DNA of 46,296 bases from Candidatus Gottesmanbacteria bacterium (GTDB taxonomy: Bacteria > Patescibacteriota > Microgenomatia > 2-02-FULL-39-11), in NCBI GenBank assembly GCA_016186795.1, contig JACPKY010000002.1, positions 416,748 through 463,043 on the forward strand. The letters are read 5' to 3'. The translations under genes were made by a program, and so were the position numbers. This document shows, in pieces, positions 5,622 through 43,057 of the stretch (the stretch's first letter is position 1; the number at the start of each line of letters is the position of its first letter). The notes beneath the pieces were generated by a model. That model saw only the letters and a program-made list of their open reading frames with translations, was not told the DNA's origin and ran no database searches.

Positions 5622-6259
5622 AGAGAAATTCTCTTTGCTGGAACTCCAACAACAGTTGTTTTTTCTTTTACATTGTGAGTAACCATTGCTCCACCGCCGA
5701 CGACTGCATCGTCTCCGATTGTCATATACTGCATCACTTTCGCACCTATCCCAACCATTGTTCGACGACCAATTTTTACTCCGCCACCAAGATGAGCTCC
5801 TGGCTGAACTGAACTAAATCTACCAATAATACAGTCATGATCGATACTTGATGATGTATTTACGATCGCTCCTTCTTCAATAACCGTTCCGATATTAATA
5901 ACTACTCCAGGGGCAATGAAAACTCCTTTCGAAATTTTTACGTGCGGGGAAATAGATGTACTGGGTGCAATACATGTACAAGGAAGTTGAGATGTACTTT
6001 TTCCAATTTTTTCAGAAATTTTCTCGCGGAGAACATTATCACCAATAGCAACAAAATAATTGACTTCATTTTCTTTTACGAATCTGATCATATCGTCCAA
6101 ACCACCCAAAACTTTCCATGCGATTCTTTTCGTACCAAAAAGAGTTTTATCGTCATCAAATAAACCTTCAACACGTATGTGGCGGGATTCAAATACGTCT
6201 GCTACAACTCGTGCATGTCCTCCTGCACCAAAGAGAACTACTCTTTTTATCTTCCTCAT
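5618..6259 (-). CDS. Left-handed beta-helix (hexapeptide) sugar N/O-acetyltransferase, NeuD/PglD/LegH-like
   Basis: N-terminal Rossmann-like VVLFGAGGHARVVADV is followed by hexapeptide repeats (IAPGVVINIGTVIEEGAIVNTSSSIDHDCIIGRFSSVQPGAHLGGGVKIG). Confidence 0.8.
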   Translation of the reverse strand: MRKIKRVVLFGAGGHARVVADVFESRHIRVEGLFDDDKTLFGTKRIAWKVLGGLDDMIRFVKENEVNYFVAIGDNVLREKISEKIGKSTSQLPCTCIAPSTSISPHVKISKGVFIAPGVVINIGTVIEEGAIVNTSSSIDHDCIIGRFSSVQPGAHLGGGVKIGRRTMVGIGAKVMQYMTIGDDAVVGGGAMVTHNVKEKTTVVGVPAKRISL

Positions 6260-7626
6260 TATTCTTTCTCCTCTTTTAGAAGTACTTGAAGATTACTGGA
6301 AAATGGAAGTATATCCTTCGCTTCTCCTTTTTCCAAATGGGATTTTAGATCTTGGATACCTTCTTTAAGTGTAATCGTTGAATGAAAGTTCAACTTTTTT
6401 TTGATTTTAGAAAAGTCTACTTGATAACTTCTTTTATCGTCGTTTGTGCTTTCTGTCTCAATTGGGATTCCATCAAATTCTTGAGATATTATATGCCCCA
6501 ATTCGTTGAGTTGAACATTCAACGAGTCCACCCCTACATTAAAAATCTCTCGATCCAGAGTTGAAATAGGGGTTTCAATTGTCTTTATAATGGCCCGGGC
6601 AACATCTTGGACATGGATGAAGGGTCGCCACTGCTTACCTGACTGGAGAATTATTTTCTTTTTATTTACTGCTGAAAGACAAAAAAAATTCGCAACCAAA
6701 TCGAAACGTGGTCTGAAACTCCAACCAAATACTGTTCCTAGACGAAGAACAGTCGGATAAAAATTCTTTATCGTATCAGATAGAATGAGTCTCTCGCATT
6801 CAAGCTTTGTCCGAGCATAGAGAGAGAGTGGATGAGGAATACTTTCCTCATGAAATTTCTTTTCTCCGAACCCATACACCGAACAACTTGATGTATAAAT
6901 AAATCTTTTGATACCCATATTTTTTGCGGTAAAGAGAACATTTTGTGTCCCCCCATAATTTACCGATACTGTATACTCTCTATCCAGAGAACACGCGGGG
7001 TCTCCCACAATTTCTCCGAGATGTACAACCGTATCTATATTTTCCATCGCCTCTCTTATAGAAACTATATTTCTTGTATCCCCTATATAGTGTTCAAACT
7101 TCTTCTTTCCATAAAGATCTCGAATAGAACTATCACCATAGAGGAGTGAATCAAAAACTCTGACCCTATAGTTTCTCTGAAGAAGTAATCGGACTAGTAC
7201 TGATCCTATATACCCTGCGCCTCCGGTAACGAGAACCCGATTATTTTTTGATTGTCCGTTTGTCTGAATTTTTTGGGGTATTTGTCCATGAAGGGAAAGT
7301 ATATCAATAATTCTTCGGTTTTCATCAATTATTGGAACATACATAATATTATTGTCATTGAGAAATTGAAGTGTTGAAGTATCAAGTGGTTGATACTTTT
7401 TTCTCAGACTATACGGATTGGGATTTGCAACGATCCTTACACTTAAACGTACACTTTTTCCCTGCAAAATGGCGCGGCGAATATCCCCGTCGGTTACTGA
7501 ACCTAAAAGTCTCCCTTCTTTATCAACTACAAAAAGAATCCCTTTCTTATTTTTTTCAAATTGGGCAAGTGTATCTCGTACAGTCTTGTTAGCCCCAATG
7601 AGCCATTTCTTAAGTTGTGTTTTCAT
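6259..7626 (-). CDS. Fusion protein: N-terminal CBS pair plus C-terminal extended-SDR NDP-sugar epimerase/oxidoreductase
   Basis: Residues ~1-115 have a CBS-pair pattern (ILFVVDKEGRLLGSVTDGDIRRAIL ... YVPIIDENRRIIDILS). From ~residue 130 the sequence reads VLVTGGAGYIGSVLV, TSSCSVYG and YARTKLECE (SDR triad). Confidence 0.75.
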   Translation of the reverse strand: MKTQLKKWLIGANKTVRDTLAQFEKNKKGILFVVDKEGRLLGSVTDGDIRRAILQGKSVRLSVRIVANPNPYSLRKKYQPLDTSTLQFLNDNNIMYVPIIDENRRIIDILSLHGQIPQKIQTNGQSKNNRVLVTGGAGYIGSVLVRLLLQRNYRVRVFDSLLYGDSSIRDLYGKKKFEHYIGDTRNIVSIREAMENIDTVVHLGEIVGDPACSLDREYTVSVNYGGTQNVLFTAKNMGIKRFIYTSSCSVYGFGEKKFHEESIPHPLSLYARTKLECERLILSDTIKNFYPTVLRLGTVFGWSFRPRFDLVANFFCLSAVNKKKIILQSGKQWRPFIHVQDVARAIIKTIETPISTLDREIFNVGVDSLNVQLNELGHIISQEFDGIPIETESTNDDKRSYQVDFSKIKKKLNFHSTITLKEGIQDLKSHLEKGEAKDILPFSSNLQVLLKEEKE

Positions 7627-8663
7627 GATATGTATGATCGAATAATTTCTACTACTCTTTCCTTTCCCCGCCCGTCAACAAGTTTCATCGCAAGCTTTCC
7701 CATACTCTCGCGTTTTAGTTTCTCTTGGAAAAGTCTCTCAAGCGCCATTCCAAGAGTTGAAGGTTTCACTTGTTTGTAAAGGCCAAAATTTATACACGCT
7801 TTCCTTTCTTCGAGAAAGGCAGCATTCTCGTTTTGTCTAGGAACTTGATTCATTGCCAAAAATGGAGTACCAATCACACTTGCTTCATATGCACCATTTC
7901 CAGCTGAACCAATTAAAACATCACTTTCTTTCATGGATGCTGCGATATTTTGAGAAGAAAGACTTGTCAAAAAATGCACCGTAAGACCGAGTCGATGAGC
8001 TAATTTTTCCAAGCTCGAATACCCTTTTTCTACAGGACTAATAATTATAGTCGTTGTCGGATGAAAAGTCACAAGAGAAATAGCTTCCAAAACTATTGAA
8101 ATGGCAGGAATTGAGTTTACCCCACCAAATAATACAAGAATGTTTGAAATCTTATTCTGATAAGAGCGGGCAAAGAAGCGGAAAGTCAGGAATGTTTCAT
8201 TGATGATAAAATATCGCAACCCGAAATATCTTTTGGGGAACACTGAAGATTTTGGGTATAATCTTTTTGACTGGTGAGGATTGCAACAGAATTGCACGTC
8301 GCAGTCAACATCCCTTGGATTTGGATCATCAGTTGTAGAAAAGATAGTTATCTTTTGCTCCCTGTAGAGAGAAGTGTAATCGGAATCTTTATCTTCTCGT
8401 AAAAGATCGATCATTATACCCTTTGGTTTTTTTTCTGATAGGTACCTTTTTAAAATATTCAGTGATCCATTCTTGTCTTTTGGAAGTACGACAATTTCTG
8501 CATGACTTCGCTTTTGAATAAATGGGAGTACGTGGAGAGGAGAACGAGTGAAAAAAATAGTTCGAATACCTTTATCTCGTAAATCATTCGCAATATCAGA
8601 CTGCCGACTTACATGTCCTAAGCCAATCCTAGTTGAAGCATCCGCACGAATAGCAAAATACAT
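7623..8663 (-). CDS. pseG: PseG/SpsG-family UDP-sugar hydrolase (nucleotidase step of nonulosonic acid synthesis)
   Basis: N-terminus MYFAIRADASTRIGLGHVSRQ matches the RADAS..IG.GH..R signature of PseG. The C-terminal GT-B lobe reads SDVLIGSAGNGAYEASVIGTPFLAM. It lies immediately upstream of the NeuB-family gene. The symbol is given at family level only. Confidence 0.7.
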   Translation of the reverse strand: MYFAIRADASTRIGLGHVSRQSDIANDLRDKGIRTIFFTRSPLHVLPFIQKRSHAEIVVLPKDKNGSLNILKRYLSEKKPKGIMIDLLREDKDSDYTSLYREQKITIFSTTDDPNPRDVDCDVQFCCNPHQSKRLYPKSSVFPKRYFGLRYFIINETFLTFRFFARSYQNKISNILVLFGGVNSIPAISIVLEAISLVTFHPTTTIIISPVEKGYSSLEKLAHRLGLTVHFLTSLSSQNIAASMKESDVLIGSAGNGAYEASVIGTPFLAMNQVPRQNENAAFLEERKACINFGLYKQVKPSTLGMALERLFQEKLKRESMGKLAMKLVDGRGKERVVEIIRSYIS

Positions 8664-8668
8664 ACAAT

Positions 8669-9724
8669 CTAGAGAAGATGCGAAGAAGTAATTTGTTGAT
8701 CTTTCTTTATTGACCGTACAAGTTTTCTCCCAATGAGATCCTTATATTTTAAAGGCAAGATACCACCTTCTTCTGGTCTTTTGTATGCAAGATCTTTTTC
8801 CGTCAGTACCTGTCCTTTTGCAAGATTTGTACGAGCTACAATCGATCTTCTAAATTCTTTCCGTTTCTCAATTTCATATGTTCCAACTACTCTTTCATAC
8901 TGACCCACCGCATGAAAAACATTCTTTACCTCTTTCACAATATATTCCATCTCAACGGGGTCAGCAGAAATTGAATGATCCCAACCAGGCAGAGTCTTAT
9001 CCAGTGTAAAATGCTTCTCGATAATACAGGCTCCGAAACTCACTGCTGCCACACTAAGTGACGTACCAACACTATGGTCACTAAATCCTACATGAACGCC
9101 AAAGGTTTTTCTTAGCATTTCTATATTTTTAAGATTTATATCTTCATATTTCGGTGGATAGACCGAAATACAGTGAAGAAGAACAGTGTCGATTTTTCCC
9201 CCCCGTAAGATCTCCATCGCTTGATCAATTTCCCAAAGTGTTGCCATACCGGTTGATAGAATAACTGGTTTCCCTTTTGTAGCAACATACTCTAGAAGCG
9301 GATGATTCGTTACGTCCATTGAAGCTATTTTAAAAAATGGCACATCAAGCTTATCGAGTAAATCAGCTGTTTTGGTATCAAATGGAGTACTTGCAAAAGC
9401 TATATGTTTTTTTTGGCAATAGGATAGAATCTCCTCATACTCCTTTGGTGTTAGAGAATATTCTTTTACCATTTCGTAAAGCGACCCAAAATGTTTATGC
9501 TCATCTCCAGGGTAAGTAAGATGTTTCTCATAGAGTGGAAGACTTATCAGATTTTCTGTAGTAAATGACTGGAATTTCACCACATTCACCCCACACGATA
9601 CTGCGGAATCTATAAGTTTGCGACAAAGATTCATGTCACCATTATGATTGGCACCAATATCGGCAATAATATAAGGTAAATGCCCTTCCCCGATATACGT
9701 ATTGTTCATTTTAATTGGCTTCAT
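8669..9724 (-). CDS. neuB: NeuB-family nonulosonic acid synthase (PseI/LegI/NeuB/SpsE-like) with a C-terminal SAF domain
   Basis: YIIADIGANHNGDMNLCRKLID, VKFQSF, FASTPFD, FKIASMD, PVILSTGMA, LLHCISVYP and GFSDHS are hallmark NeuB TIM-barrel motifs. The C-terminal RSIVARTNLAKGQVLTEKDL is the SAF domain. Substrate specificity cannot be read from the sequence. Confidence 0.9.
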   Translation of the reverse strand: MKPIKMNNTYIGEGHLPYIIADIGANHNGDMNLCRKLIDSAVSCGVNVVKFQSFTTENLISLPLYEKHLTYPGDEHKHFGSLYEMVKEYSLTPKEYEEILSYCQKKHIAFASTPFDTKTADLLDKLDVPFFKIASMDVTNHPLLEYVATKGKPVILSTGMATLWEIDQAMEILRGGKIDTVLLHCISVYPPKYEDINLKNIEMLRKTFGVHVGFSDHSVGTSLSVAAVSFGACIIEKHFTLDKTLPGWDHSISADPVEMEYIVKEVKNVFHAVGQYERVVGTYEIEKRKEFRRSIVARTNLAKGQVLTEKDLAYKRPEEGGILPLKYKDLIGRKLVRSIKKDQQITSSHLL

Positions 9725-9733
9725 GGCTTTTGG

Positions 9734-9762
9734 AGTGTATCATCACAAATTTTATCAGTCAA
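9734..9762 (-). promoter_or_regulatory. Possible internal sigma70-like promoter, TTGACT-17 nt-TACACT, ending 9 nt before ATG 9724 (neuB)
   Basis: The minus strand reads TTGACT (9762-9757), a 17-nt spacer, then TACACT (9739-9734). It lies in the 49-nt gap, the largest within the array. Confidence 0.3.
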
Positions 9763-9773
9763 CGTAACGGTAT

Positions 9774-11216
9774 TTACCCATTCAAAAGCTCAAAACACCG
9801 AGCTTCCATATAATCGAGAACATGTCTTTTATGAGGGAAGACATCTCTACTGTGGTAACTTCCTTTTTTCGGTTTGCCATTCGTACTATCAGAAAGTTTT
9901 CTAAGTGTTTCAATCAAACTTTGCACTGATTCTATTGGAACTGTTATTTCATCAATAATTCTGTGGCGGGTCGAATATTTTGAAGGAAGAAAACGAAGAG
10001 TATATTTTCCGATACCGGCTGAAACATATAGGCCTGTTGACCCACAGGCAACAACGACTTTGAGATTATCCCAGTTGAGCAAGTTTTTCAGTTCCTCGTG
10101 TGTAATTTTTATATTTGGGTAATTTTGCATATCTTCCGAACCTGGAATAGATATATGTTCATGGTAGGGCCGGGTTTTAATAAGAAAAAACCAGTGTGGG
10201 AAGAGACGTGCTGTCCTTTTTATCCATTCTAATGATAACCGCATTAAATCACCTGTATTAAGAACTGGATTTTGATCATATTCTGAGAGAAAAAGAAAAA
10301 CATTTTTCCCAAAAGATTTGCTTTTAAGATGTTTTTCTTGCTGAGTAACCTTATAATTCTTTTTTAATATCTCATCTATTTGGGCATTTCCAACTATCGT
10401 AAATAGTGGCATGTTTCCCTTTTGTATTTTCTTTAATTCATCTGCAACAGTTTTATTCCATACCCATACTTCACGAGAAATAATAGGAACCACCATGGTT
10501 GTCGGATGCTCATTGAAAAACCAAATGGTATGAATGTTTTTCTTTTCTCCGAGGAGTGCCAATTCTGCTCCAAACGGTACATGATCACCATTGGTGATTA
10601 TTATTTTCGGTTGCAAAAGGCCAAGAAGATGCCCAAGCGATCGAAAACGGAGGCGAGACAAAAAAAGTTGGTACCATAAAGAAAAAGGGTTATTAAGTAT
10701 TTTTTGAACTTCTCTATTCATTTTTTGTGAACGAAACTGAAGATAGAGCATATCCAAAAATGAAGAAGCAAATGATAGAAGAAATTGAAACGTACTTCCT
10801 CCAAAAGCGATGTATTTTGACATTGAAGGAAAAGAAGAAATATTTATCTCCTTTTCCGATGGATTTACTGTTTCAAATCGATCCGGAGAAAATCTGATTA
10901 CTCGAAGATCTTTTTGCGCAAGTTTTTCTCCCAACCTATCTAGGGTAGGCTGGAAACTCGGTTTGCGACTTGATGAAAAAATAAGAACATCGCAAGAGAT
11001 TTTGGATAAATTAAGCGGATGGATTTTCTGAAAATTAGAAAGAACCTCTTTAATAAACTGGGGAAAATTATTCACTTTGCCCTCTCTAAGAAGTAGAGGA
11101 AGCCGAGCCGCAAACAAACTCTGGTGGTTTTTCTCTATAGGACCTATGTGCTGAATATAATTTTCAAAATGAGAAGCAATGTGAAATCCGTCGGGGAGTA
11201 AGGGCTTTGCATCCAT
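9774..11216 (-). CDS. Uncharacterised 480-aa protein, putative GT-B-like transferase sitting between the cytidylyltransferase and the NulO synthase
   Basis: Intact ORF with GGAG 10 nt upstream of its ATG. There are no TM segments. The C-terminal lobe reads WFFLIKTRPYHEH...LKVVVACGSTGLYVSAGIGKYTLRF, which resembles the (K/R)xHP plus G-rich donor lobe of capsule-synthesis/TagF-type GT-B enzymes. Family not recognised with confidence. Confidence 0.45.
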   Translation of the reverse strand: MDAKPLLPDGFHIASHFENYIQHIGPIEKNHQSLFAARLPLLLREGKVNNFPQFIKEVLSNFQKIHPLNLSKISCDVLIFSSSRKPSFQPTLDRLGEKLAQKDLRVIRFSPDRFETVNPSEKEINISSFPSMSKYIAFGGSTFQFLLSFASSFLDMLYLQFRSQKMNREVQKILNNPFSLWYQLFLSRLRFRSLGHLLGLLQPKIIITNGDHVPFGAELALLGEKKNIHTIWFFNEHPTTMVVPIISREVWVWNKTVADELKKIQKGNMPLFTIVGNAQIDEILKKNYKVTQQEKHLKSKSFGKNVFLFLSEYDQNPVLNTGDLMRLSLEWIKRTARLFPHWFFLIKTRPYHEHISIPGSEDMQNYPNIKITHEELKNLLNWDNLKVVVACGSTGLYVSAGIGKYTLRFLPSKYSTRHRIIDEITVPIESVQSLIETLRKLSDSTNGKPKKGSYHSRDVFPHKRHVLDYMEARCFELLNG

Positions 11217-11221
11217 GAAAA

Positions 11222-11989
11222 TTATACTCCAAATATTCGCTTTTTGTATTGAACTTCTGTCTCATACCGATTACTATTGAGTGCTTTTACCGCAGGGTGA
11301 GTATCGAGAAACCTTAAGATATCGTCCAACCCAAAAAGTGGATTCTGAGGATATAGTGCCTCAATTATTTTTTTCACTTGCATCAAATCTTCAGGATAAT
11401 CTAATACGATCCGATATTTGTCATGAATATTGGAGGAGTTCTCAATATTTCCGATTCGAAAATGGTGAGGATTTTTCCAAATGAAACTCGTAACGTGTTC
11501 TTTATCTTCTGATTTAAGATCTTGACTTAAGTATATTCGTTCTAACGCTTCACGGTGTACAATTTCAATTTGCATTCCTTCTGGGAATGTAGAGGGGTGA
11601 TTATTACTTACATAATCGTATCCTTGAAATTTTTGTTCAAATTCTTTGATAAGAAATGCGCATAACTTTGGATCAATCAAAGGACTATCTCCCCAGAATT
11701 TCACAAAGTAGGTATCCGGAAATAAATTTGTACACTGACATATTCTATCCAAAACATTCTCTTCACTCCCACGAAAGACATCCAATCCTAAATGTCGGCA
11801 GTAACCTGCTAATTCATCATCACTTGCATTTACTGTTGTTGCAACAATAATTTTACTTACCATGGGAATTGCATGAACTCGTTCAATGAGAAAGTAAAAA
11901 ATGGGTCTACCCAAAATCTTTCGCATTGCTTTATTTCGAAGCCGTGAAGAGCCATTTCGGATCTGTACAATTGCGGGATACTTGGCCAT
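11222..11989 (-). CDS. SpsF/PseF-type cytidylyltransferase (CMP-nonulosonic acid synthetase candidate)
   Basis: N-terminus AIVQIRNGSSRLRNKAMRKILGRP is the acylneuraminate-cytidylyltransferase-type P-loop-like motif (R.GS.R...K). The length (255 aa) and the NulO context fit. Confidence 0.75.
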   Translation of the reverse strand: MAKYPAIVQIRNGSSRLRNKAMRKILGRPIFYFLIERVHAIPMVSKIIVATTVNASDDELAGYCRHLGLDVFRGSEENVLDRICQCTNLFPDTYFVKFWGDSPLIDPKLCAFLIKEFEQKFQGYDYVSNNHPSTFPEGMQIEIVHREALERIYLSQDLKSEDKEHVTSFIWKNPHHFRIGNIENSSNIHDKYRIVLDYPEDLMQVKKIIEALYPQNPLFGLDDILRFLDTHPAVKALNSNRYETEVQYKKRIFGV

Positions 11990-11997
11990 TGCAAAAA

Positions 11998-12714
11998 TTA
12001 TTTCTCTACTAAAACAATATAGTAAGATGTTTTGCGCTTTCCTGGAACTTCATCAATTGTCAATTTTTTAAAACTCATATCCCAGGTGTGGATGCGAACT
12101 GTTCCAAACGGTAGAAACATTGCAGAAATATCACTCTTCGTAAATGCATGAAACGGAAGCGTAACGGAGTGAGTACCAGTTTTTTGTGAAAGAAATATTG
12201 AGTCTTTTACAAGATAAGTATTTTCCCCAATCTTTTTCGCATGGTCGAATGCACAATCTGTTATTCTCTTCAACAGGAAAAATCCTACACCACCTTTCTT
12301 TAATACACGATAGCATTCTTTACTCGCCTTGAGTATATCTTCCCAAGAGTTATTTACCAGTGTTGCATGCTCAATAATTCCATCAAAAAAATTATCAACG
12401 TATGGAAGAGACGTAATAGGTCCGAGCCGAATATCTGCTTCGCATTTTTCCCTTTTAAGCCAATTCTCTGCGTACTTCACTGCAACGATACTTCCGTCAA
12501 TTCCATAAGCTTTAAATCCCATTTGCCGAAGAAGAATTATGTGACGCCCAATCCCACACCCTAAGTCCAAAATTCGGTAACGTGACCTCCTGCTTTTGGG
12601 AAAGCTACTAACAAGAAAACGAACAATATTTTCATCAGGATAGATAGGCCTGTAATCAGGATTCATATGATACATATCAAAGATGCGCGGGTTGTAAGTC
12701 GGAATACCTTGCAT
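11998..12714 (-). CDS. Class I SAM-dependent methyltransferase
   Basis: Motif I reads ILDLGCGIGRHIILL, then YGIDGS and GIIEHATL. Confidence 0.8.
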   Translation of the reverse strand: MQGIPTYNPRIFDMYHMNPDYRPIYPDENIVRFLVSSFPKSRRSRYRILDLGCGIGRHIILLRQMGFKAYGIDGSIVAVKYAENWLKREKCEADIRLGPITSLPYVDNFFDGIIEHATLVNNSWEDILKASKECYRVLKKGGVGFFLLKRITDCAFDHAKKIGENTYLVKDSIFLSQKTGTHSVTLPFHAFTKSDISAMFLPFGTVRIHTWDMSFKKLTIDEVPGKRKTSYYIVLVEK

Positions 12715-12715
12715 G

Positions 12716-13885
12716 CTATAAATCTTTCACAGCAGTTTGAATTGATGAAGCAATATATTCAATATTTTGCTGCGACAGGTTAATCATAATTGGTATTGCA
12801 ATTGCCCTTTGGAGTAACTCATAACTTTTGGGCCATAACTTGAGATAATTTTTCTCGGCATATCGTGGATATACGTCCCAAATATGATCCCAACGACCTG
12901 CAAAATGCCATTTCACTGCTCCAGGGAGAAGTTTAAATCCAATTTTCTTCCCTGTAAGATAGTCTGATACCTTTTTGCGTTGTTTCGCCGTAGGGAGAAA
13001 GAACGTTAAGCTGTCTCCTACTTCTTCTCCTTCTTTTGGAACTTTTCGAAACTCAATTTCAGGAATACCCTTTAGTAAATTCTCTAACTTTTTGTAATTT
13101 TTCTTGACCTGAGATAAAGCCTTCGGTAATTTCCTCAGTTGGGCAAGACCTACTGCTCCTTGAAGTTCCATCATACGGAAATTAAAGCCACTCCGTGTTG
13201 CTGTATCTTCCCCTCGAGGGAACTTAGGATTATCTTCATGACCATGATCACAGTAAGCACGCGCTGCAAGATAAAGTTTTTTAGTAGGTACAACTATCAT
13301 CCCTCCATCTCCTGTTGTCAGCGTTTTTCCAAAATCAAAGCTGAATGCTCCTGCATCTCCGAAAGTTCCGCAAAACTGACCATTATACTTTGCCCCTAGA
13401 GACTGTGCCGTATCTTCTAAAAGAAAAAGACGATACTTCTTTGCAATGCGGGCAATTTCAGATATTCTCGCCGGTACTCCCATCATATGTACTACCCAAA
13501 TCGCTTTTGTTTTCTTCGTTATTCTCTTCTCAAGATCAATGGGGTCCATATTTAACGTCTCATCGACTTCGCAAATGACAGGTGTTGCCCCAGTCTCCAA
13601 TATTGCTTCAACGGTTGCAACAAACGTAAAGCTTTGTGTAATAACTTCATCACCCTTACCTATCCCAAATATTTTATTTATTGCAAAAAGAGACGCGGTA
13701 CCTGAAGTAGTCGCTTGAGCATATTGTGCATGAAGAAACTCTGCAAACTTATTCTCGAACTCAACAACTTTGTACGTATTGTTTCGAAGAGCTTCAAAAC
13801 CGTATCGGAATAAAACACCACCGCTATCAAAAACCGAATTTACTTCTTGGCGTTCTTCACTGTCTATAATTTCATATCCTGGCAT
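12716..13885 (-). CDS. DegT/DnrJ/EryC1-family PLP aminotransferase (second copy; KdnA-like context)
   Basis: TSGTASLFAINKIFGIGKGDEVITQSFTF, LLEDTAQSLGA and FSFDFGKTLTTGDGGMIVV (catalytic Lys context). The ORF track starts at TTG 13906. I prefer ATG 13885 (MPGYEIID...) because a perfect AGGAGG lies 9 nt upstream of it. Confidence 0.85.
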   Translation of the reverse strand: MPGYEIIDSEERQEVNSVFDSGGVLFRYGFEALRNNTYKVVEFENKFAEFLHAQYAQATTSGTASLFAINKIFGIGKGDEVITQSFTFVATVEAILETGATPVICEVDETLNMDPIDLEKRITKKTKAIWVVHMMGVPARISEIARIAKKYRLFLLEDTAQSLGAKYNGQFCGTFGDAGAFSFDFGKTLTTGDGGMIVVPTKKLYLAARAYCDHGHEDNPKFPRGEDTATRSGFNFRMMELQGAVGLAQLRKLPKALSQVKKNYKKLENLLKGIPEIEFRKVPKEGEEVGDSLTFFLPTAKQRKKVSDYLTGKKIGFKLLPGAVKWHFAGRWDHIWDVYPRYAEKNYLKLWPKSYELLQRAIAIPIMINLSQQNIEYIASSIQTAVKDL

Positions 13886-13894
13886 ATAATCGTT

Positions 13895-13900
13895 CCTCCT
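13895..13900 (-). promoter_or_regulatory. Shine-Dalgarno sequence AGGAGG for the second aminotransferase gene
   Basis: The minus strand reads AGGAGGAACGATTATATG, with AGGAGG 9 nt upstream of ATG 13885 and overlapping the TAG stop of the Fe-ADH gene. Confidence 0.6.
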
Positions 13901-15062
13901 AGTCAATCATACTATGTAACATAGCTCGAATATTTTTTTCTGTCATGGGTATCGGATTTTGCTCAACTGCACTCCACAAGAATTTTAAGTGGTCAATGAT
14001 TGAATCGATATCAGATTTTTGCACCCCAAATGTATTAAGTTTTTCAGGAATATCAAGATTTGCACATAAGAGTTGGAAACAGTGAAGAAACTTCTGACTT
14101 TTGTCTTTTCCGATGCATTTCTTTTGAACTGATGGATCAACCAAATCATACAGGGTTTCATATCCTTTATACCCGTTTTCGATGTTAAATTTGATTACGG
14201 GGTACAAAAAAACCGACCCGGCAAGACCGTGTGTTACGCGGAAAAGTGTTCCAATTGGATACGATAGTACACCTGCAGGACCTGCAGCAGAGTTAAAAAG
14301 AGCAATTCCAGCTAGATACGCACCCAAAGAAACTTGCGTACGAAGATTAATATCCTCAGGATTTTTTACAACTCTTTCCAGATTATTAAAAATCAAAGGA
14401 AAAGCTTCCTCTGAGAATAGTTTCGATAGTAGAGAGTGCTTTTTTGCTACAAAACTTTCAAGAGTATGTGTCAAAGCATCCATGCCAGATGCAATTGTTA
14501 CAGAGGATGGACAAGATAGGGTAAGAAGTGGGTCGATCACTGAAAAAACCGGTAGGTAAAGAGGCGAATTAATACCAAATTTTCGTTTTTCCTTTCTGTC
14601 AATGAAAACAGCATACGGTGTAATTTCACTCCCAGATCCGGCAGTTGATGGAATAAGTATAAGAGGAATTCCTGAATTTTTAATAAGACCAAATCCTCTA
14701 TATGCAATAGCTCTCTTTTTATTCGTCACCAAAACAGATATTGCCTTTGCAACATCCATCGTACTCCCCCCACCAATCCCTAAAAGACAATCAATTTTTT
14801 TATCAAATTTTCCACGAATAGAATCTAAATAATCATACGTGGGCTCCATCATGTCATTTATAAAATACGGGTTAATTGTGTACAACTTTCGCAATTTCTT
14901 TATAAGTTGTTGCCAATACTCACCCTTTTCAACGTGAAGATCAATAATCACTCCAACACGGTTAAAACCCTTTTCTTCCAAAAATGGAATAATTTCATTA
15001 AGACTTCCAGGACCAAATGAAAGATTGGTATGCAATCGAAAGTAAAGCAGTGAGTCTTTCAT
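13899..15062 (-). CDS. Iron-containing (class III) alcohol dehydrogenase family oxidoreductase
   Basis: LLGIGGGSTMDVAKA, IPSTAGSGSEITP, SGMDALTHTLES and VTHGLAGSV correspond to the GGGSxxDxAK, PTTAGTGSE and metal-binding His motifs of the Fe-ADH family. Confidence 0.85.
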   Translation of the reverse strand: MKDSLLYFRLHTNLSFGPGSLNEIIPFLEEKGFNRVGVIIDLHVEKGEYWQQLIKKLRKLYTINPYFINDMMEPTYDYLDSIRGKFDKKIDCLLGIGGGSTMDVAKAISVLVTNKKRAIAYRGFGLIKNSGIPLILIPSTAGSGSEITPYAVFIDRKEKRKFGINSPLYLPVFSVIDPLLTLSCPSSVTIASGMDALTHTLESFVAKKHSLLSKLFSEEAFPLIFNNLERVVKNPEDINLRTQVSLGAYLAGIALFNSAAGPAGVLSYPIGTLFRVTHGLAGSVFLYPVIKFNIENGYKGYETLYDLVDPSVQKKCIGKDKSQKFLHCFQLLCANLDIPEKLNTFGVQKSDIDSIIDHLKFLWSAVEQNPIPMTEKNIRAMLHSMID

Positions 15063-15078
15063 ACACGTAATTTCATAA

Positions 15079-16347
15079 TTACTCTGAAAGAGTATCGATC
15101 GTGTATTTTGGCTTTATAACAAGCAGGCTCTCTTTTTTTTGCATATTGTACCCCAAGGCTCCAATTTCACTATCTTCTGAAAGCTCGATGTTTATCCCCG
15201 TACCAAAATTAGGATGATTATGATGTGCTTTCATATCTAATCCAACTGCAGCTCGAACAATATATCTACCACAATTTAAAACAGATCCTGGAAAAATAAC
15301 GCGTAGGTAGGATTTTCCTTTTTCCCAAGAAGAAAATTTCGGATCTTCTTGTGTATTCCAATACCAAAGAAGAGTCCCATCGGTTGAAGCAATAACAACA
15401 ATAATATCGATTTTTCCACGACTTGTATCTCGAATAAGGAAATCTACCTCAATAGTTATATCATCTGCTGGATTAAGAATTGAAGTAATTCTATCAGATG
15501 CGTCTTTTATACCTACACGCAGTAATTGACCTGCTTTCGTATCATCTATAGGATATGTGATTTCTCCACTCTTTGATAAATTTTTTTGCAGATAATAATC
15601 AACAACTTTATTGGGTTTGCCGATCTTTGTAAGAATTCCATTCTCCAAAAGAATACATTTTTGCACAAGTCGAATGATTGCAGCCATGTTATGACTAACA
15701 AAAAGAACAGTTCTTCCTTGTGAGGCAACATTATCCATTTTGCTAAGACACTTCTTTTGAAAATTTACATCACCGACGGCCAAAACTTCATCGACAATAA
15801 GTATCTCAGGTTCCAAGTGTGCAGCTACAGCAAAAGCAAGACGGGTATACATTCCTGAAGAGTAAAATTTTACTGGCGTATCTATAAACCTTGGTATTTC
15901 AGCAAAATCAATGATCTCATCAAATTTCCGCCTAATTTCTTTATTTTTCATTCCAAGTATTGCACCGTTTAGATATACATTTTCTCTGCCTGTTAACTCT
16001 GGATGAAAACCAGTTCCTACTTCCAGAAGACTTGCGACTCTCCCCCGTAAAATAATTTTTCCCTTTGTAGGAGGTGTTATTTGACTTAGAATTTTCAAAA
16101 GCGTACTTTTCCCGGCTCCATTTCGGCCTATTATTCCTACAATCTCTCCACTGCCTATCTTGAATGATACGTCCTTGAGCGCCCATATATGTTGATTGGA
16201 AGAAGCTTTTAAGGGAGAATCCTTTTTACTTACAAAGGGAGAGTGAAAAAAATCCATAACGGTATCCCGTAGGGAATAGTATGGGAGAACTTTCCCTATC
16301 CGATACTGTTTTGAGATGTTTTGTATTTCAATAATTGGTTTTGTCAT
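15079..16347 (-). CDS. wzt: Polysaccharide ABC exporter ATP-binding protein (Wzt/TagH type) with a ~170-aa C-terminal extension
   Basis: Walker A GIIGRNGAGKSTLLK, signature YSSGMYTRLAFA and Walker B ILIVDEVLAVGD. The sequence beyond ~residue 250 is beta-rich (ITIEVDFLIRD..., YLRVIFPGSVLNCGRYIVR), as in Wzt C-terminal glycan-binding domains. Confidence 0.85.
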   Translation of the reverse strand: MTKPIIEIQNISKQYRIGKVLPYYSLRDTVMDFFHSPFVSKKDSPLKASSNQHIWALKDVSFKIGSGEIVGIIGRNGAGKSTLLKILSQITPPTKGKIILRGRVASLLEVGTGFHPELTGRENVYLNGAILGMKNKEIRRKFDEIIDFAEIPRFIDTPVKFYSSGMYTRLAFAVAAHLEPEILIVDEVLAVGDVNFQKKCLSKMDNVASQGRTVLFVSHNMAAIIRLVQKCILLENGILTKIGKPNKVVDYYLQKNLSKSGEITYPIDDTKAGQLLRVGIKDASDRITSILNPADDITIEVDFLIRDTSRGKIDIIVVIASTDGTLLWYWNTQEDPKFSSWEKGKSYLRVIFPGSVLNCGRYIVRAAVGLDMKAHHNHPNFGTGINIELSEDSEIGALGYNMQKKESLLVIKPKYTIDTLSE

Positions 16348-16352
16348 GCACG

Positions 16353-17180
16353 TTATACAATATCTGCAAAATATTGCTGTGTTTTATTGAAGTACCATAG
16401 TCCAATAATAAATACAACAAAAGCAAAAAATATTGCAAAAACTATTTGAGAAAGCGTTATAACGGTCGTTCCTGAGAATGGCCACCTCACAAGTTCAATA
16501 ACAATTGCCATAGGATTAAATGACATGATGAATCTATTTCTCTCGGACAAAATAGCCATTGGATAGACAACCGGAGTAACATAGAAGGATATTTGAATAA
16601 AAAAGGGTAGAATATAACGTACGTCTCGAAATTTTACATTTAAAGAAGAGAGTATAAGTCCAAGACCTGCAGCAAGTGTTGAAGATATTAGTAGCGCTAA
16701 AAGAAACGGAATCACTGACCAAAGATGCGGAATGTATCCCAAAAAAACTGCGACAATAAGTAAAATAGCGAAATTAATAAGAAAATCAACAAATCGAGTA
16801 ATAACACTAGCAATAATAAGAATTATTTTGGGGAAGTATATTTTTTTGATGATGGATTGATTCCCTATGATGCTGTCAATCGATTCTGACAGAGCTGTTG
16901 AATAAAAAGACCAGTAAACGATACCACAAAGAACAAAAAGTGTATACGGAAGATTTCCCGAGGGTATTTTGGCCACATTGCCAAATAGCACGGTAAAAAT
17001 GAGCATGGTGACGAGTGGCTGAAAGATAACCCATAAAATTCCGAGTATAGTCTGTTTATATCGCACCTTCAAATCCCTCCAGACGAAAACAAAGAAAAGC
17101 TCGCGAAATCTCCAAATCTCAGAAATATTAAGTAAAGATTGTGATGATTTTGGGACAATGGTGATTTCTTTTATTTCCAT
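16353..17180 (-). CDS. wzm: ABC-2 type polysaccharide exporter permease (Wzm/TagG type)
   Basis: 275 aa with about 6 hydrophobic segments. The N-terminal ELFFVFVWRDLKVRYKQTILGILWVIFQPL is the ABC-2 signature. It lies directly upstream of wzt (5-nt gap). Confidence 0.85.
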   Translation of the reverse strand: MEIKEITIVPKSSQSLLNISEIWRFRELFFVFVWRDLKVRYKQTILGILWVIFQPLVTMLIFTVLFGNVAKIPSGNLPYTLFVLCGIVYWSFYSTALSESIDSIIGNQSIIKKIYFPKIILIIASVITRFVDFLINFAILLIVAVFLGYIPHLWSVIPFLLALLISSTLAAGLGLILSSLNVKFRDVRYILPFFIQISFYVTPVVYPMAILSERNRFIMSFNPMAIVIELVRWPFSGTTVITLSQIVFAIFFAFVVFIIGLWYFNKTQQYFADIV

Positions 17181-17183
17181 GAT

Positions 17184-18344
17184 TTAACTGACCGAATCGA
17201 GTGTTTTTTTTGCTATAACGCTCCACGAAAGAAACTCTTGCGCAAATACTCTACTTGCTTTTCCAAGACCCATTCGAAACTTCTTATTCGAAACTAATAG
17301 TGTAATCTTATTTGCTAAGTTTTTCCAATCGCCAATATTGTATCGTAATACACGGTCTTTCAGAAATGCATTGTTTTCCACATTTGCAACAATAAGTGGT
17401 AATGACGATGCCATAGCCTCAAATATCGATATGGAAAAATCACCAGGCCAACATCCTATATCTGCAGCAGAAAAGTACCCCGGTAACTGCGAATTTTTCA
17501 CCATCTGATGGTAGAGAATACATTTCCTTTTATCAATCCTATTTAAGTATTTAATATATGCACCATCTCCCCCTCCTAATAGAAGTATTTTAATCCGGGA
17601 GTTTTGGATAGAATTAACTGCTTGTATAAGTGTATGGATTTCTTTGTTAGGACTTATTTTCCCTGTGAAGATAATAAGAATATCACTATATGTAAGTCCA
17701 AGTTCTCGCCTTATAAACAGTCTTTTCTTAGAATTATATGTGAACACATAAGGATCAACGCCCAGATGGATTATTGGAACTTTTCTCTTGTCTACTCTTA
17801 GATTTTCATAAAGAAAATCTCTTTCATTATTTCCTACGGCAAAGAGAAAATCTTTCCATCTAACTATTTTGGGCCAAATAAGACTTTCATATATCATGAA
17901 ATAAAGTCGTTTAGTTAAAGAATTGGTTAAATTTGTATTAAATGCCGCAGCGTGAGTATCGTAGACAAGTTTATACCCAATATCCTTTTTCCAAAAAGCC
18001 GCAAGATATGCCGTCAGAGAAAATACTCCATGGCAAAAAAGTATGTCAGGAGAAATTTCCTGTAAAACTTTTTTTAAGCCATGAAGATAGACAACTGAAC
18101 TTGGCACAATCTCAATTGATCGAAGTCTAACTGTCAAAATACCCTCTTCATATCGTTTCCCAACAGGTACAACTCTTTTGCCTAAAATTGATTTATACGT
18201 TTTATCATAATTTGGAAAAGGAAAATACATTGAAGAGGTGACAACGGTTACATCATGACCTAAACGAGTATGTTCTCGGGCAAGGAAGTATTCTTGGTAT
18301 CCTACTTTTGGTTGAAAGTAATCAATAAGATGGACTATCTTCAT
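17184..18344 (-). CDS. Glycosyltransferase, GT-B fold (GT4-like)
   Basis: MKIVHLIDYFQPKVGYQEYFLAREHTRLGHDVTVVT (GT4 N-lobe) and a C-lobe reading ILIIFTGKISPNK...SIFEAMASSLPLIV. Confidence 0.8.
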   Translation of the reverse strand: MKIVHLIDYFQPKVGYQEYFLAREHTRLGHDVTVVTSSMYFPFPNYDKTYKSILGKRVVPVGKRYEEGILTVRLRSIEIVPSSVVYLHGLKKVLQEISPDILFCHGVFSLTAYLAAFWKKDIGYKLVYDTHAAAFNTNLTNSLTKRLYFMIYESLIWPKIVRWKDFLFAVGNNERDFLYENLRVDKRKVPIIHLGVDPYVFTYNSKKRLFIRRELGLTYSDILIIFTGKISPNKEIHTLIQAVNSIQNSRIKILLLGGGDGAYIKYLNRIDKRKCILYHQMVKNSQLPGYFSAADIGCWPGDFSISIFEAMASSLPLIVANVENNAFLKDRVLRYNIGDWKNLANKITLLVSNKKFRMGLGKASRVFAQEFLSWSVIAKKTLDSVS

Positions 18345-18347
18345 ATG

Positions 18348-20243
18348 TTAATCAAGATATCGTCTTGCCCAGAGCTCAAAGATAAAAAGAGTCCAAACTC
18401 GTAAGTGATCGGTCCAAAGTGTTTTCCCTAAATCTTGCGTATAAAACGATTGAACAACATCGTTCACATATTTTTCATTAAAAATACCCCTCTTCTTTAT
18501 CGAACTTGGACTCAAAGCTTCGAGGATGAGTGGTTTGAGAATACCTTTCATATAGCGCTTTCTTGGAAACCCAAAACCAGTTTTTTTGTGATCAATAATT
18601 TCCTTTGGTAACCATTCTTTTGCAACTTCTTTCAAAATATATTTTTGGATTCCATTCTTAACCTTAAATTCGTATGGAAGTGAGAAAGCGTATTCTACAA
18701 GACGCTTATCCAACAGAGGAACTCTCACTTCAAGTGAATGGGCCATACTTGCCATATTAGTTGTAATTAAAAGATTGTCTCGTGTGTATGTAGAAAGATC
18801 CATAAAGGAGAGTTTATCTATTTCATTGGTTGCCTTACTACTTTCAAATATTTCGGAAAAAATTTGTCGGGTATTATATTTGCTATCTTCTAAAAATGAG
18901 GAAGAAAATAGTCTCTTTTTCTCTTGATCAAAGTATGCAAAGTAGAAAAATAGTCTTTTTTCAAGAAATGTTGGAAGTCGTAAGAATCGATCTATCAAAG
19001 AGAATGTCTTTTTATAGCAGTTCAATAGTGGAAATTGCGAGAGTATCTGAATAACATTTCGAGTAAGTTTTTTAGGAACTCTTTTATAAAAAGTTGAGAG
19101 AGTATTAGTTCTATAAATCCATCCGTGATAGCCTCCAAAAAGCTCATCTCCACCAAGACCACTTAAAGCGACTTTTACATCATTTCCAATTACTTTTGAG
19201 AGAAAATATGTTTCAAATGATTCTCCATTGGGTTGATCAAGAAAATAAATGAAGTTTTCAAACTCAGTAAAGATTTCTTTTTCGCCTATTGTGTATTCTG
19301 TATGATCTGTATGGAACTTCTTCGAAACAAGTCTGGCAAATTCTCTTTCATCAAAACCTTTCCCTTCATCTGCCCAAAGTGAATATGTCTTCACTCTTTT
19401 TTTATTATGATTTGCCATGAGTGCAACAACAAGAGAAGAATCTATACCACCCGAAAGAAATGCACCAACTGGTACATCAGAAACAGTAGTAAGCGAAACA
19501 GAGGACAACAGAAGTTCTCTCAACTTTTCTTTTTCATTCTCATAAGAGACATTTCTTTTAGCTGAAAATGTAGGAAGGTGCCAGAACTTCTTTATTCGGA
19601 GACCATTTCTCCCCACCCACATGAAATGACCTGGAGGAAGACTGTATACACCTTTAATGATGGTTAAGGGAGTGGGAGTTGCAAAAATTGATGTATAGTG
19701 ATACAAAGCCTCTTTATTTATTTCCTTCGAAACAATTGGATTTGACAGAATCGACTTGACTTCTGATGCAAAAAGAAATGTATTTCCACCTTTGAAGTAA
19801 AAAAGAGGATTTATTCCAAGATGGTCTCTTGCAAGGAAAAATGCTTTTTTCCTCATATCATAAATACATAAAGCAAACTGACCTAAAAGTTTTTCTACAA
19901 TTTTTTCACCAAACTCTTTAAATCCAACAAGAATAACTTCTGTATCGGTTTCAGTGAGAAAGGAATGTCCATACGACTTAAGTTCTTCCCGTAAACTTTT
20001 GTAATTGAATATTTCGCCATTAAAAGTAATCCAGAGAGATTTGTCATACAAGGATAGAGGCTGATTTCCAGATTCCCGAGGATCTATAATGGCAAGTCGT
20101 CTATTAGCAAGACCAACATTATTTAATATAAACTCCCCATGACCGTCTGGTCCCCGATGGGAAACACATGTATCCATACGGTGGAGAATTTTTTTGTCAA
20201 CGCTCCTTCCATCAAACTGAAAAATTCCAGCTATACCGCACAC
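18348..20243 (-). CDS. asnB: Asparagine synthase (glutamine-hydrolysing) family amidotransferase; probably a glycan amidation enzyme rather than housekeeping AsnB
   Basis: The start codon is GTG (20243-20241), followed directly by Cys: (M)CGIAGIF, the Ntn-amidotransferase nucleophile. SGGIDSS is the PP-loop in the synthetase domain. The protein (631 aa) sits inside a glycan operon. Confidence 0.85.
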   Translation of the reverse strand: MCGIAGIFQFDGRSVDKKILHRMDTCVSHRGPDGHGEFILNNVGLANRRLAIIDPRESGNQPLSLYDKSLWITFNGEIFNYKSLREELKSYGHSFLTETDTEVILVGFKEFGEKIVEKLLGQFALCIYDMRKKAFFLARDHLGINPLFYFKGGNTFLFASEVKSILSNPIVSKEINKEALYHYTSIFATPTPLTIIKGVYSLPPGHFMWVGRNGLRIKKFWHLPTFSAKRNVSYENEKEKLRELLLSSVSLTTVSDVPVGAFLSGGIDSSLVVALMANHNKKRVKTYSLWADEGKGFDEREFARLVSKKFHTDHTEYTIGEKEIFTEFENFIYFLDQPNGESFETYFLSKVIGNDVKVALSGLGGDELFGGYHGWIYRTNTLSTFYKRVPKKLTRNVIQILSQFPLLNCYKKTFSLIDRFLRLPTFLEKRLFFYFAYFDQEKKRLFSSSFLEDSKYNTRQIFSEIFESSKATNEIDKLSFMDLSTYTRDNLLITTNMASMAHSLEVRVPLLDKRLVEYAFSLPYEFKVKNGIQKYILKEVAKEWLPKEIIDHKKTGFGFPRKRYMKGILKPLILEALSPSSIKKRGIFNEKYVNDVVQSFYTQDLGKTLWTDHLRVWTLFIFELWARRYLD

Positions 20244-21477: not shown

Positions 21478-22389
21478 TTATTTTAACCTTTTTGATAGTA
21501 TAGAAAAAATTTTTGCTTGAGAGGTTGCTTGAAAGTTTATTTTTTTGAATATTTTCTGAGAAGAAAGGGTTGCATTCTTGAGACGAAATTTTGCCGACCT
21601 CTTGAAAAAATCACGTAACGTACTCGATATAACTTTCCCAGGTAATTTCATTTTTTTTTGAAGAGTGGTTACTAACTGATACGGCGTGATTATTTCATTC
21701 CCTGCAAAATGGTAAATTCCCTCTAAGTTTTTCTCTATGCTTAGGATTATGACGTTAACGAAATCATCGATAAACGTGGGATTTATTGATTGATCATTTA
21801 CTGCTTTGGTAGTTTTCCCACTTTTGAGAGAATGAAAAAACTTGCGGATTATATCGGTAGAAAAATAATTCACATGCCCATATGATAGGACTGAACGAAT
21901 GATGCAAAATGAAGAACATAATTTTTGAATTTCTTCTTCGCCGTGTAATTTCGTCTCTCCATAAAAATTGATAGGATGAGGAGAATCTTCTTCGGTATAA
22001 TTTCCTTTCCTGCCGTCAAAAACACATTCGGTGGATAAATAAATAACCTTTTTACCGAGTTTTTTTGAAATATACGCAATATTTTTTGTGCCCTCGACAT
22101 TCACTTGCCAAGTCTCACTTCGTTCCTTTCGTTGGCTATCTTTTTGACATACATCAATATGAGTCTTGGCTGCTAAGTGCACAATACCATCAAAATCCGT
22201 TCGTTCAAGGGAGCGGAGGAGTAATTCTCTATCGAGAATATCTGCTTGTATAGTCTTGTAAACTCCTAGAGCGGGAAATCGAAATCCTCTCCGATTAAGA
22301 TCAATGAGTTCAAAATGTTTCCCAACAATTTGTGCCAAACGGGAGCCTATATAACCATGAAGTCCTGTCACAACAATTCTTTTTTTCAT
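21478..22389 (-). CDS. RmlD-like NAD(P)H-dependent 4-ketosugar reductase (dTDP-4-dehydrorhamnose reductase family)
   Basis: IVVTGLHGYIGSRL, LSTECVFDG (compare STDYVFDG of RmlD) and YGETKLHGE (YxxxK). TAATG overlap with the upstream gene at 22389. Confidence 0.7.
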   Translation of the reverse strand: MKKRIVVTGLHGYIGSRLAQIVGKHFELIDLNRRGFRFPALGVYKTIQADILDRELLLRSLERTDFDGIVHLAAKTHIDVCQKDSQRKERSETWQVNVEGTKNIAYISKKLGKKVIYLSTECVFDGRKGNYTEEDSPHPINFYGETKLHGEEEIQKLCSSFCIIRSVLSYGHVNYFSTDIIRKFFHSLKSGKTTKAVNDQSINPTFIDDFVNVIILSIEKNLEGIYHFAGNEIITPYQLVTTLQKKMKLPGKVISSTLRDFFKRSAKFRLKNATLSSQKIFKKINFQATSQAKIFSILSKRLK

Positions 22390-27596: not shown

Positions 27597-27605
27597 GAAA
27601 GGTAG

Positions 27606-43044: not shown

Positions 43045-43057
43045 AGCAACTGTTTGA

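Follow-up and report, generated by a model that had tools for sequence, protein, structure and literature searches.

The DNA analyzed here, a window of 46,296 nucleotides from Candidatus Gottesmanbacteria (contig JACPKY010000002.1, positions 416,748 to 463,043; by the window we mean this whole stretch), carries a three-gene module that encodes an iron-containing alcohol dehydrogenase (Fe-ADH), a DegT-family aminotransferase related to KdnA, and a methyltransferase that would use S-adenosylmethionine (SAM). Our reading is that the Fe-ADH and the aminotransferase act on a nonulosonic acid (NulO), oxidizing and then transaminating its side chain, as part of a conserved NulO cassette, with C9 favored over C8 as the site. 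On the sequence evidence laid out below we hold this to be probable, at roughly 60%. The first-pass annotation of this DNA had placed three genes of these kinds upstream of a cytidylyltransferase, and the open reading frames (ORFs) and Pfam matches agree:

13899-15062, minus strand: Fe-ADH with the class III alcohol dehydrogenase fold, 387 aa; PF00465 at 1.5e-32 and ADH_Fe_C (PF25137) at 2.1e-28.
13895-13900, minus strand: AGGAGG Shine-Dalgarno site of the aminotransferase, read off the sequence; it shares bases with the TAG that terminates the Fe-ADH reading frame (13901-13899).
12716-13885, minus strand: KdnA-like DegT aminotransferase; Pfam DegT_DnrJ_EryC1 (PF01041) at 2.4e-80.
11998-12714, minus strand: class I SAM methyltransferase, 238 aa; Methyltransf_25 and Methyltransf_11 at ~1e-16.

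The arrangement is that of KdnB and KdnA of Shewanella oneidensis (PDB entries 5k8c and 5k8b), which convert 3-deoxy-D-manno-octulosonate (Kdo) through 8-oxo-Kdo to its 8-amino form, Kdo8N: a gene of the Fe-ADH fold lies directly upstream of a DegT gene, beside a cytidylyltransferase for an ulosonic acid. The likeness suggested earlier between the window aminotransferase and KdnA is borne out, as KdnA is its best PDB match (5k8b; E 6.6e-80, 272 bits), 80 bits ahead of the runner-up (1.8e-55, 192 bits), with 41% identity across 339 aa. Lys187 and Asp158, which from general knowledge of the fold we take to be the catalytic lysine and the aspartate that binds pyridoxal phosphate, align with conserved KdnA residues and are near-invariant in both clades described below. 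The mechanically called ORF (12716-13906) starts at a TTG at 13906, while the first-pass annotation had started the gene at ATG 13885. The latter start yields an N-terminus (MPGYE...) that aligns residue for residue with that of KdnA (MPGFE...), and the AGGAGG (13900-13895) lies 9 nt upstream of it; ATG 13885 is therefore the better start. The AGGAGG had also been called the only strong Shine-Dalgarno site of the array. The site is there, and the starts of the Fe-ADH, the methyltransferase and the cytidylyltransferase, the only others compared, have nothing comparable, so that the claim holds over these four genes. This distribution suggests that the host rarely uses such sites and that there is a special need for translational coupling at the aminotransferase. 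Homologues of the enzyme number more than 5,600 at E <1e-30, and annotated relatives of at least 50% identity come from Chloroflexota, Omnitrophota, Leptospira, Methanoregula and Woesearchaeota.

We sampled 80 aminotransferase loci from species-representative genomes and three by exact look-up (given below by their L or P numbers), annotated them with the window's own proteins and three reference proteins drawn from the loci, and built a neighbor-joining tree with the other DegT gene of the window as its root. The tree falls into two clades, one with Shewanella KdnA and about 60 loci, mostly from Desulfobacterota, and the other with the window plus 21 loci spread over diverse lineages. Of the window-clade loci, 17 extend more than 3 kb downstream, and NeuB occurs in every one of these (16 found by script, and L087 added from the Pfam result), against none of 45 loci in the KdnA clade. 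Conversely, 29 of 61 KdnA-clade loci have a strong KdsB-like cytidylyltransferase, and no window-clade locus has one. The sister-clade placement and this exact split in context indicate that the window enzyme is a NeuB-linked sister of KdnA and not a KdnA orthologue. They also bear out the connection to ulosonic-acid genes made in the first-pass annotation, with the clade tied to NeuB and a NeuA-type cytidylyltransferase and not to Kdo genes. Among positions that might separate the NeuB-clade from the KdsB-clade aminotransferases, six weak candidates emerged, none of them diagnostic. The gene immediately upstream of the aminotransferase encodes an Fe-ADH in 17/20 window-clade loci (15 by script, with L006 and L007 added on inspection because of overlapping ORFs) and in 35/57 KdnA-clade loci. 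For background, a set of 80 loci was found with generic Fe-ADH motifs in an alignment-based scan, mostly unrelated Fe-ADHs; a KdnA-like aminotransferase is near 4 of these, among the matches listed.

The three Fe-ADH motifs reported earlier (GGGSTMDVAKA, STAGSGSE and DALTHTLES) are all found in the translation. The KdnB-likeness that had been proposed for the protein fails at the level of sequence: it scores 72 bits (4e-19) against KdnB 5k8c, versus 145 bits against methanol dehydrogenase, which together with lactaldehyde reductase makes up its top PDB matches (~1e-41). A genuine KdnB-like Fe-ADH, that of the Burkholderiaceae locus L011, reaches 286 bits to 5k8c and is 24% identical to the window protein. 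We collected 120 clusters at least 42% identical to the window Fe-ADH, all labelled merely 'iron-containing alcohol dehydrogenase'. The residue aligned with the fourth metal ligand (position 264, presumably equivalent to His263 of Zymomonas ADH2) is Gly in 113/120 of these, whereas the KdnB-like and methanol-dehydrogenase-like references have His there. The other ligands are kept (D195 and H278 in 120/120, H199 in 119/120), and the Gly is followed by a Ser-Tyr pair, with Ser267 in all 120 and Tyr268 in 119/120. Judged by these residues and scores, the window Fe-ADH belongs to a new, large and unnamed subfamily and is not a KdnB orthologue. A genome scan using the window Fe-ADH alone returned no relatives.

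The Fe-ADHs paired with these aminotransferases come from three subfamilies: true KdnB-like enzymes (e.g., in Burkholderiaceae and Leptospira idonii), methanol-dehydrogenase/FucO-like enzymes in the KdsB-linked clade, and the window type. That one aminotransferase family is repeatedly paired with different Fe-ADHs argues for an alcohol-oxidation/transamination couple, in which an alcohol would be converted to a carbonyl and then to an amine. Of the KdnB/KdnA-type pair put forward in the first-pass annotation, the aminotransferase half is supported, being KdnA-like and NeuB-linked with an Fe-ADH upstream in most loci, and the KdnB half finds no support in the sequence. The window pair differs from KdnB/KdnA in both partners, with an aminotransferase from the NeuB-tied sister clade and an Fe-ADH from another subfamily with Gly for the metal-binding His, as well as in a presumed nine-carbon NulO substrate and an added methyltransferase.

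The genes flanking the module encode the following:

16353-17180 and 15079-16347, minus strand, directly upstream of the module: Wzm (ABC2_membrane) and Wzt (ABC_tran + Wzt_C) of an ABC exporter.
11222-11989, minus strand: CTP_transf_3 cytidylyltransferase (PF02348, 1.8e-20), predicted to be a CMP-nonulosonic acid synthetase.
9774-11216, minus strand: 480-aa protein, predicted soluble, between the cytidylyltransferase and NeuB; no family match.
8669-9724, minus strand: NeuB-family nonulosonic acid synthase (PF03102 at 1.1e-85, plus a SAF domain).
7623-8663, minus strand: PseG-like nucleoside diphosphate (NDP)-sugar hydrolase; TIGR03590 PseG, 105 bits vs a cut-off of 153.6.
6259-7626, minus strand: fusion of CBS domains and an extended short-chain dehydrogenase/reductase (SDR), predicted to be a C4 dehydrogenase; motif Y-T-S-S-C-S-V-Y-G, best PDB match 6vo6.
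5618-6259, minus strand: NeuD/PglD-type N-acetyltransferase; TIGR03570, 211 bits, over the cut-off of 160.8.
4404-5621, minus strand: first DegT aminotransferase (PseC/LegC-like), predicted NDP-hexose C4 transaminase; PF01041 at 5e-94.

This set follows the logic of the legionaminic (Leg) and pseudaminic (Pse) acid pathways, in which an NDP-N-acetylhexosamine (NDP-HexNAc) is converted to the 4-keto, 4-amino and N-acetylated sugars, hydrolyzed, condensed by a NeuB-type synthase and activated with CMP, and there is a homologous fold for each step. Unlike in the LegB/C/H/G/I/F and PseB/C/H/G/I/F sets, only the NeuD-type acetyltransferase reaches an NCBIfam equivalog cut-off. The NeuB scores 363 bits vs 399.65 for NeuB_NnaB and 294 vs 340.25 for PseI, and the first DegT enzyme scores 249 bits against PseC and 226 against LegC, both under their cut-offs. 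The set also departs from Leg and Pse in the extra Fe-ADH, aminotransferase and methyltransferase steps, and in a first enzyme that lacks the dehydratase residues.

This first enzyme, the SDR that occupies the LegB/PseB slot, bears on whether a terminal hydroxyl would be left for the couple. It scores 82 bits vs 475 for LegB and 52 vs 408 for PseB. The 4,6-dehydratases of the RmlB, GMD and LegB type carry S-T-D-E-V-Y-G at the place where the window enzyme has S-S-C-S-V-Y-G and its counterparts in L006, L009, L086, L087, L168, L169 and L170 have S-T-C-S-[VN]-Y-G. The acid/base pair of the dehydratases is thus missing from all eight orthologues compared (the window and seven from other phyla). 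Five further SDRs of the Epimerase family were aligned from the window, and none of these had the Asp/Glu pair either. The closest solved relative of the SDR is 6vo6 (133 bits; ~30% identity, estimated from the alignment), which we take to be Cj1427. Cj1427, the GDP-heptose C4 dehydrogenase of Campylobacter jejuni, forms a 4-keto sugar nucleotide without dehydration (PMC10680097). The window SDR differs in an added N-terminal pair of CBS domains and in a presumed HexNAc nucleotide substrate, the product of which would pass to an aminotransferase. These observations lead us to predict that the cassette SDR is a C4 dehydrogenase and not a 4,6-dehydratase. In that case the hexose probably keeps its 6-OH and the nonulosonic acid its terminal 9-OH, which would serve as the substrate for a KdnB/KdnA-type pair. 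A retained 9-OH had been guessed at in the first-pass annotation, and an SDR with S-[ST]-C-S-[VN]-Y-G in place of S-T-D-E-V-Y-G fits that guess.

The cassette is widespread in bacteria and archaea and is uncharacterized. Three homologues of the window-type Fe-ADH, one from Methanococcoides sp. SA1 and two from metagenomic contigs, were picked solely because they lie on long contigs, and all three are found in the same cassette: Fe-ADH, KdnA-like aminotransferase, CMP-transferase, NeuB, Epimerase_2, NeuD/hexapeptide acetyltransferase, SDR and second DegT. The cassette aminotransferases of these loci score 413-426 bits to the window enzyme. Some elements of the cassette vary among the related loci. 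Epimerase_2 (NeuC/LegG-type) replaces the PseG-like hydrolase, at a position that is not constant, and the CBS domain is either fused to the SDR or, in L086, L170 and L171, present on a PtmE-like nucleotidyltransferase. The best PDB match of the window cytidylyltransferase is 6oew ('Cytidylyltransferase', 3.6e-21); in L087 and L168-L172 its orthologues come after the aminotransferase. The order Wzm, Wzt, Fe-ADH, aminotransferase, methyltransferase is repeated in the P0005 locus and in L171, and L086 has a divergent Wzm/Wzt transporter nearby. The Wzt_C domain of the window Wzt is weak. The modified nonulosonic acid could be a chain-terminating cap that is recognized by the ABC exporter.

In one of these loci (L169, 13024-14432), the stretch between NeuB and the Epimerase_2 gene contains two additional genes, for a PIG-L deacetylase and a formyltransferase. 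A 2026 preprint (bioRxiv 10.64898/2026.04.20.719630) describes CMP-nonulosonic acids from Ca. Kuenenia stuttgartiensis in which one amine is free and one is formylated.

The family assignments, clade structure, synteny and missing residues described above suggest a pathway in which each chemical step, the order of the steps, the aminated position and the methyl acceptor are predictions from sequence. The CBS-SDR would oxidize C4 of an NDP-HexNAc and leave the 6-OH in place. The first aminotransferase and the NeuD-type acetyltransferase would then give a 2,4-diacetamido-2,4-dideoxyhexose nucleotide, from which the PseG-like hydrolase would release the free sugar. Condensation with phosphoenolpyruvate (PEP) by NeuB would yield a 5,7-diacetamido-3,5,7-trideoxy-nonulosonic acid with its 8,9-diol still present. 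The side chain would next be oxidized by the Fe-ADH, most likely from the C9-OH to the aldehyde by analogy with the action of KdnB on C8 of Kdo, and the KdnA-like aminotransferase would turn the carbonyl into an amine, the product being a 5,7,9-triamino-3,5,7,9-tetradeoxy-nonulosonic acid. In this lineage the sugar would be methylated by the methyltransferase, perhaps at the newly formed amine. Finally, the cytidylyltransferase would form the CMP-NulO for a glycan exported by the adjacent Wzm/Wzt.

Several points weigh against this scheme. An SDR without the Asp/Glu pair might still be able to dehydrate. The Fe-ADH, not being a KdnB orthologue and lacking a canonical ligand, may have a different chemistry. 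The tree was built without support values, and the locus counts are not independent, since the loci from Burkholderiaceae are close relatives of one another. In the locus of Leptospira idonii, 6 kb separate the Fe-ADH from the aminotransferase. In addition, most DegT enzymes use ketones and not aldehydes, and glycerol dehydrogenase, which has a three-ligand metal site, oxidizes the secondary alcohol of a chelating diol. By analogy with that enzyme, the site of the window-type Fe-ADH, with its three protein ligands, could favor oxidation of the secondary C8-OH.

These last two points are what speaks, on the side of the enzymes, for the leading alternative, in which the couple acts on the C8-OH to give an 8-amino nonulosonic acid. 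Such a sugar is the sole natural extra-amino nonulosonic acid for which we found documentation: the O-antigen of Tenacibaculum (Flexibacter) maritimum contains 5,7,8-triamino-3,5,7,8,9-pentadeoxy-nonulosonic acid, with the third amine on the side chain (PMC3210612). That amine, however, is on C8 of a 9-deoxy sugar, whereas the window cassette appears to keep C9 oxygenated before amination, and with an SDR lacking the dehydratase residues the terminal CH2OH should be available. The characterized sister enzyme, KdnA, works on a terminal aldehyde, and true KdnB-like oxidases too are recruited beside window-clade aminotransferases. The published description of the T. maritimum O-antigen cluster gives no enzymes for the side-chain amine and names no Fe-ADH or KdnA-like gene, although the NulO genes of that organism may lie elsewhere. 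On balance, we regard amination at C8 as unlikely, though it deserves to be kept in view.

Amination at C9 could also come about with the reactions in another order, if the pair acted before NeuB on C6 of the hexose or NDP-hexose, so that condensation of a 6-amino-hexose with PEP gave the same 9-amino nonulosonic acid. The first-pass annotation had allowed for a hexose substrate, and gene order is silent on the order of reactions. Moreover, L008 and L011-L017 consist of Fe-ADH, aminotransferase, a small glycosyltransferase of family 2 (GT2), NeuB and CMP-transferase only, with no SDR within ~10 kb, which leaves the substrate of NeuB open. Gattis and co-workers, on the other hand, reportedly found in 2013 that KdnB and KdnA use the free ulosonic acid, downstream of its synthase, and the pair mostly adjoins the cytidylyltransferase and not the NDP-sugar enzymes. 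Action before NeuB is, in our estimate, improbable.

It is also conceivable that the product of the Fe-ADH and the aminotransferase is a small amine other than a sugar, derived for instance from phosphonoacetaldehyde or lactaldehyde, that decorates the polysaccharide. The best named NCBIfam matches of the Fe-ADH are indeed ErcA and lactaldehyde reductase (TIGR02638), and more weakly the phosphonate Fe-ADH PsrA (TIGR03405), but their scores of 208, 198 and 151 are far under the cut-offs of 550, 523 and 424. The first-pass annotation had named an affiliation with phosphonate or lactaldehyde enzymes, together with matching pathway genes, as one finding that would speak against its own reading, and none of those it named turned up: besides the low scores, no PEP-mutase-type, decarboxylase, fucose or propanediol genes were found among the scanned window ORFs of at least 100 aa. 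With the synteny with NeuB and the CMP-transferase strict across phyla as well, we rejected the phosphonate and lactaldehyde versions and consider a small amine very improbable. Least probable of all is that the genes form a standard KdnB/KdnA route to Kdo8N in the lipopolysaccharide core and lie beside nonulosonic acid genes by chance. We rejected this since, for all that KdnA is the best PDB match and that the JGI automatic annotation calls many homologues '8-amino-3,8-dideoxy-alpha-D-manno-octulosonate transaminase', the window aminotransferase sits in the NeuB-associated clade apart from the KdnA/KdsB-like loci, the cytidylyltransferase reaches only 49 bits against KdsB models with cut-offs of 193-255, and the cassette is also archaeal (Methanococcoides), archaea having, to our knowledge, no Kdo-containing lipopolysaccharide.

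Taken to its full extent, side-chain amination at C9 would define an undescribed class of NulO, 5,7,9-triamino-3,5,7,9-tetradeoxy and N9-methylated in this lineage, made by way of a hydroxyl-sparing C4 dehydrogenase, a three-ligand Fe-ADH and a KdnA-sister aminotransferase. We put this complete structure forward tentatively, as a proposal that may well prove wrong in one of its parts. In the literature we found no natural 9-amino nonulosonic acid, and no paper that deals with this module or that connects nonulosonic acids with an Fe-ADH or a KdnA-like aminotransferase. The earlier claim that such a sugar had not been described thus holds for a 9-amino form, but side-chain amination as such is known from the 8-amino NulO (PMC3210612). 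The nonulosonic acid cluster of Leptospira interrogans contains a second aminotransferase without an assigned function (PMC3438082), and an automatically annotated gene table for the species lists a 'kdnB' beside neuA genes (PMC8510873). If the module clade includes it, that second aminotransferase gains a testable function.

In many microbes, surface glycans, flagella and S-layers are capped by nonulosonic acids, which influence host and phage recognition, and an extra amine would cancel the negative charge of the sugar. If our reading is true, the KdnB/KdnA chemistry would not be peculiar to Shewanella but would belong to a broad family of ulosonic-acid side-chain aminations, as one branch of it, the other branch acting on nine-carbon sugars. 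If the complete proposal is true as well, the triamino sugar would be a common, overlooked and positively charged surface component in many phyla and in methanogenic archaea. The reading gives a testable function to thousands of proteins annotated as 'DegT family' or 'iron-containing alcohol dehydrogenase', and the analysis defines an Fe-ADH subfamily that lacks one canonical metal ligand.

The third gene of the module is best described as a dedicated, optional and rare tailoring enzyme of the cassette, because its orthologues are rare and those with visible context all occur in the cassette, and other cassettes do without it. Only ~15 clusters of orthologues were found among 5.8 billion database proteins. 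All five contexts that we could see contain the Fe-ADH, aminotransferase and NeuB cassette; in four of them (the window, the P0005 locus, L086 and L171) the order is Fe-ADH, aminotransferase, methyltransferase, and in L172 the methyltransferase is further along. The cassettes of L006, L009, L087 and L168-L170 have no methyltransferase. The start at 12714, which gives 238 aa, suits orthologues of 233-245 aa; one database gene call gives 222 aa. An AlphaFold2 (AF2) model of the protein has a pLDDT of 89.7, and its Foldseek matches are generic class I methyltransferases, the top ones uncharacterized; the characterized neighbors are a mix of N-methyltransferases, C-methyltransferases and others. 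Sequence searches gave no specific match to amino-sugar N-methyltransferases of the TylM1/DesVI type. That the enzyme N-methylates the new amine is a reasonable guess, nothing more.

The whole window is a single long minus-strand run of polysaccharide genes. The intergenic gaps around the module are 16, 13, 1 and 8 nt, and within 8000-18500 promoter- or terminator-like sites were not found above shuffle expectation. Given the short gaps and the lack of such signals, the module is likely co-transcribed with the cytidylyltransferase (11222-11989).

As for the 480-aa protein at 9774-11216, Pfam and NCBIfam return no match even at E<=1, hydropathy shows no transmembrane (TM) segments, and a single-sequence AF2 model has a pLDDT of 36 and is unusable. 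In L171, the P0005 locus and L086 its slot is taken by a protein of ~300 aa with a GT2 match that is absent or weak. The 480-aa protein may be a transferase for the modified sugar. Directly after the first aminotransferase come a second SAM methyltransferase (3766-4407, minus strand) and an epimerase-type SDR (2777-3769, minus strand), which may modify the hexose or else a different sugar in the repeat unit.

The sampled loci also include other combinations of these genes. In L025, L027, L030, L033, L051 and ~25 more loci, from Desulfobacterota and one Bacillota metagenome-assembled genome, a KdsB-like cytidylyltransferase is accompanied by a methanol-dehydrogenase-like Fe-ADH and a KdnA-clade aminotransferase. 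The one such locus viewed in detail, L051, has housekeeping surroundings. This gene set predicts that Kdo8N is made outside Shewanella with a different oxidase, and the predicted Desulfobacterota Kdo8N modules likewise acquire a testable function. Loci L011-L021 are from Burkholderiaceae (Roseateles, Pelomonas, Mitsuaria). L011 has a type I secretion set (ABC, HlyD, TolC) and, immediately following it, genes for an Fe-ADH of the true KdnB-like kind, an aminotransferase of the window clade, a ~230-aa GT2, NeuB, a CMP-transferase and a DUF4910 protein. L012-L021 agree with L011 for the proteins that could be scored, and in L011-L017 neither an SDR nor a NeuC-type gene is found within ~10 kb.

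Elsewhere in the window, seven polytopic membrane proteins with 6-11 predicted TM segments each are encoded in one cluster on the minus strand (26076-29108, 31961-33193 and 38142-44620). Several of these match PMT/PMT_2/PIG-V-like (GT-C) families, and four lie in tandem at 38142-44620; the number of GT-C-type transferases is unusually high for one polysaccharide locus. Upstream of the module, also on the minus strand, are a carbamoyltransferase (22389-24077) and an AsnB-type amidotransferase (18348-20243). The Leptospira idonii locus (L085) has three carbamoyltransferases around its KdnA-like aminotransferase, and also a methyltransferase that resembles NodS. The new amine, or a hydroxyl, might conceivably be carbamoylated.

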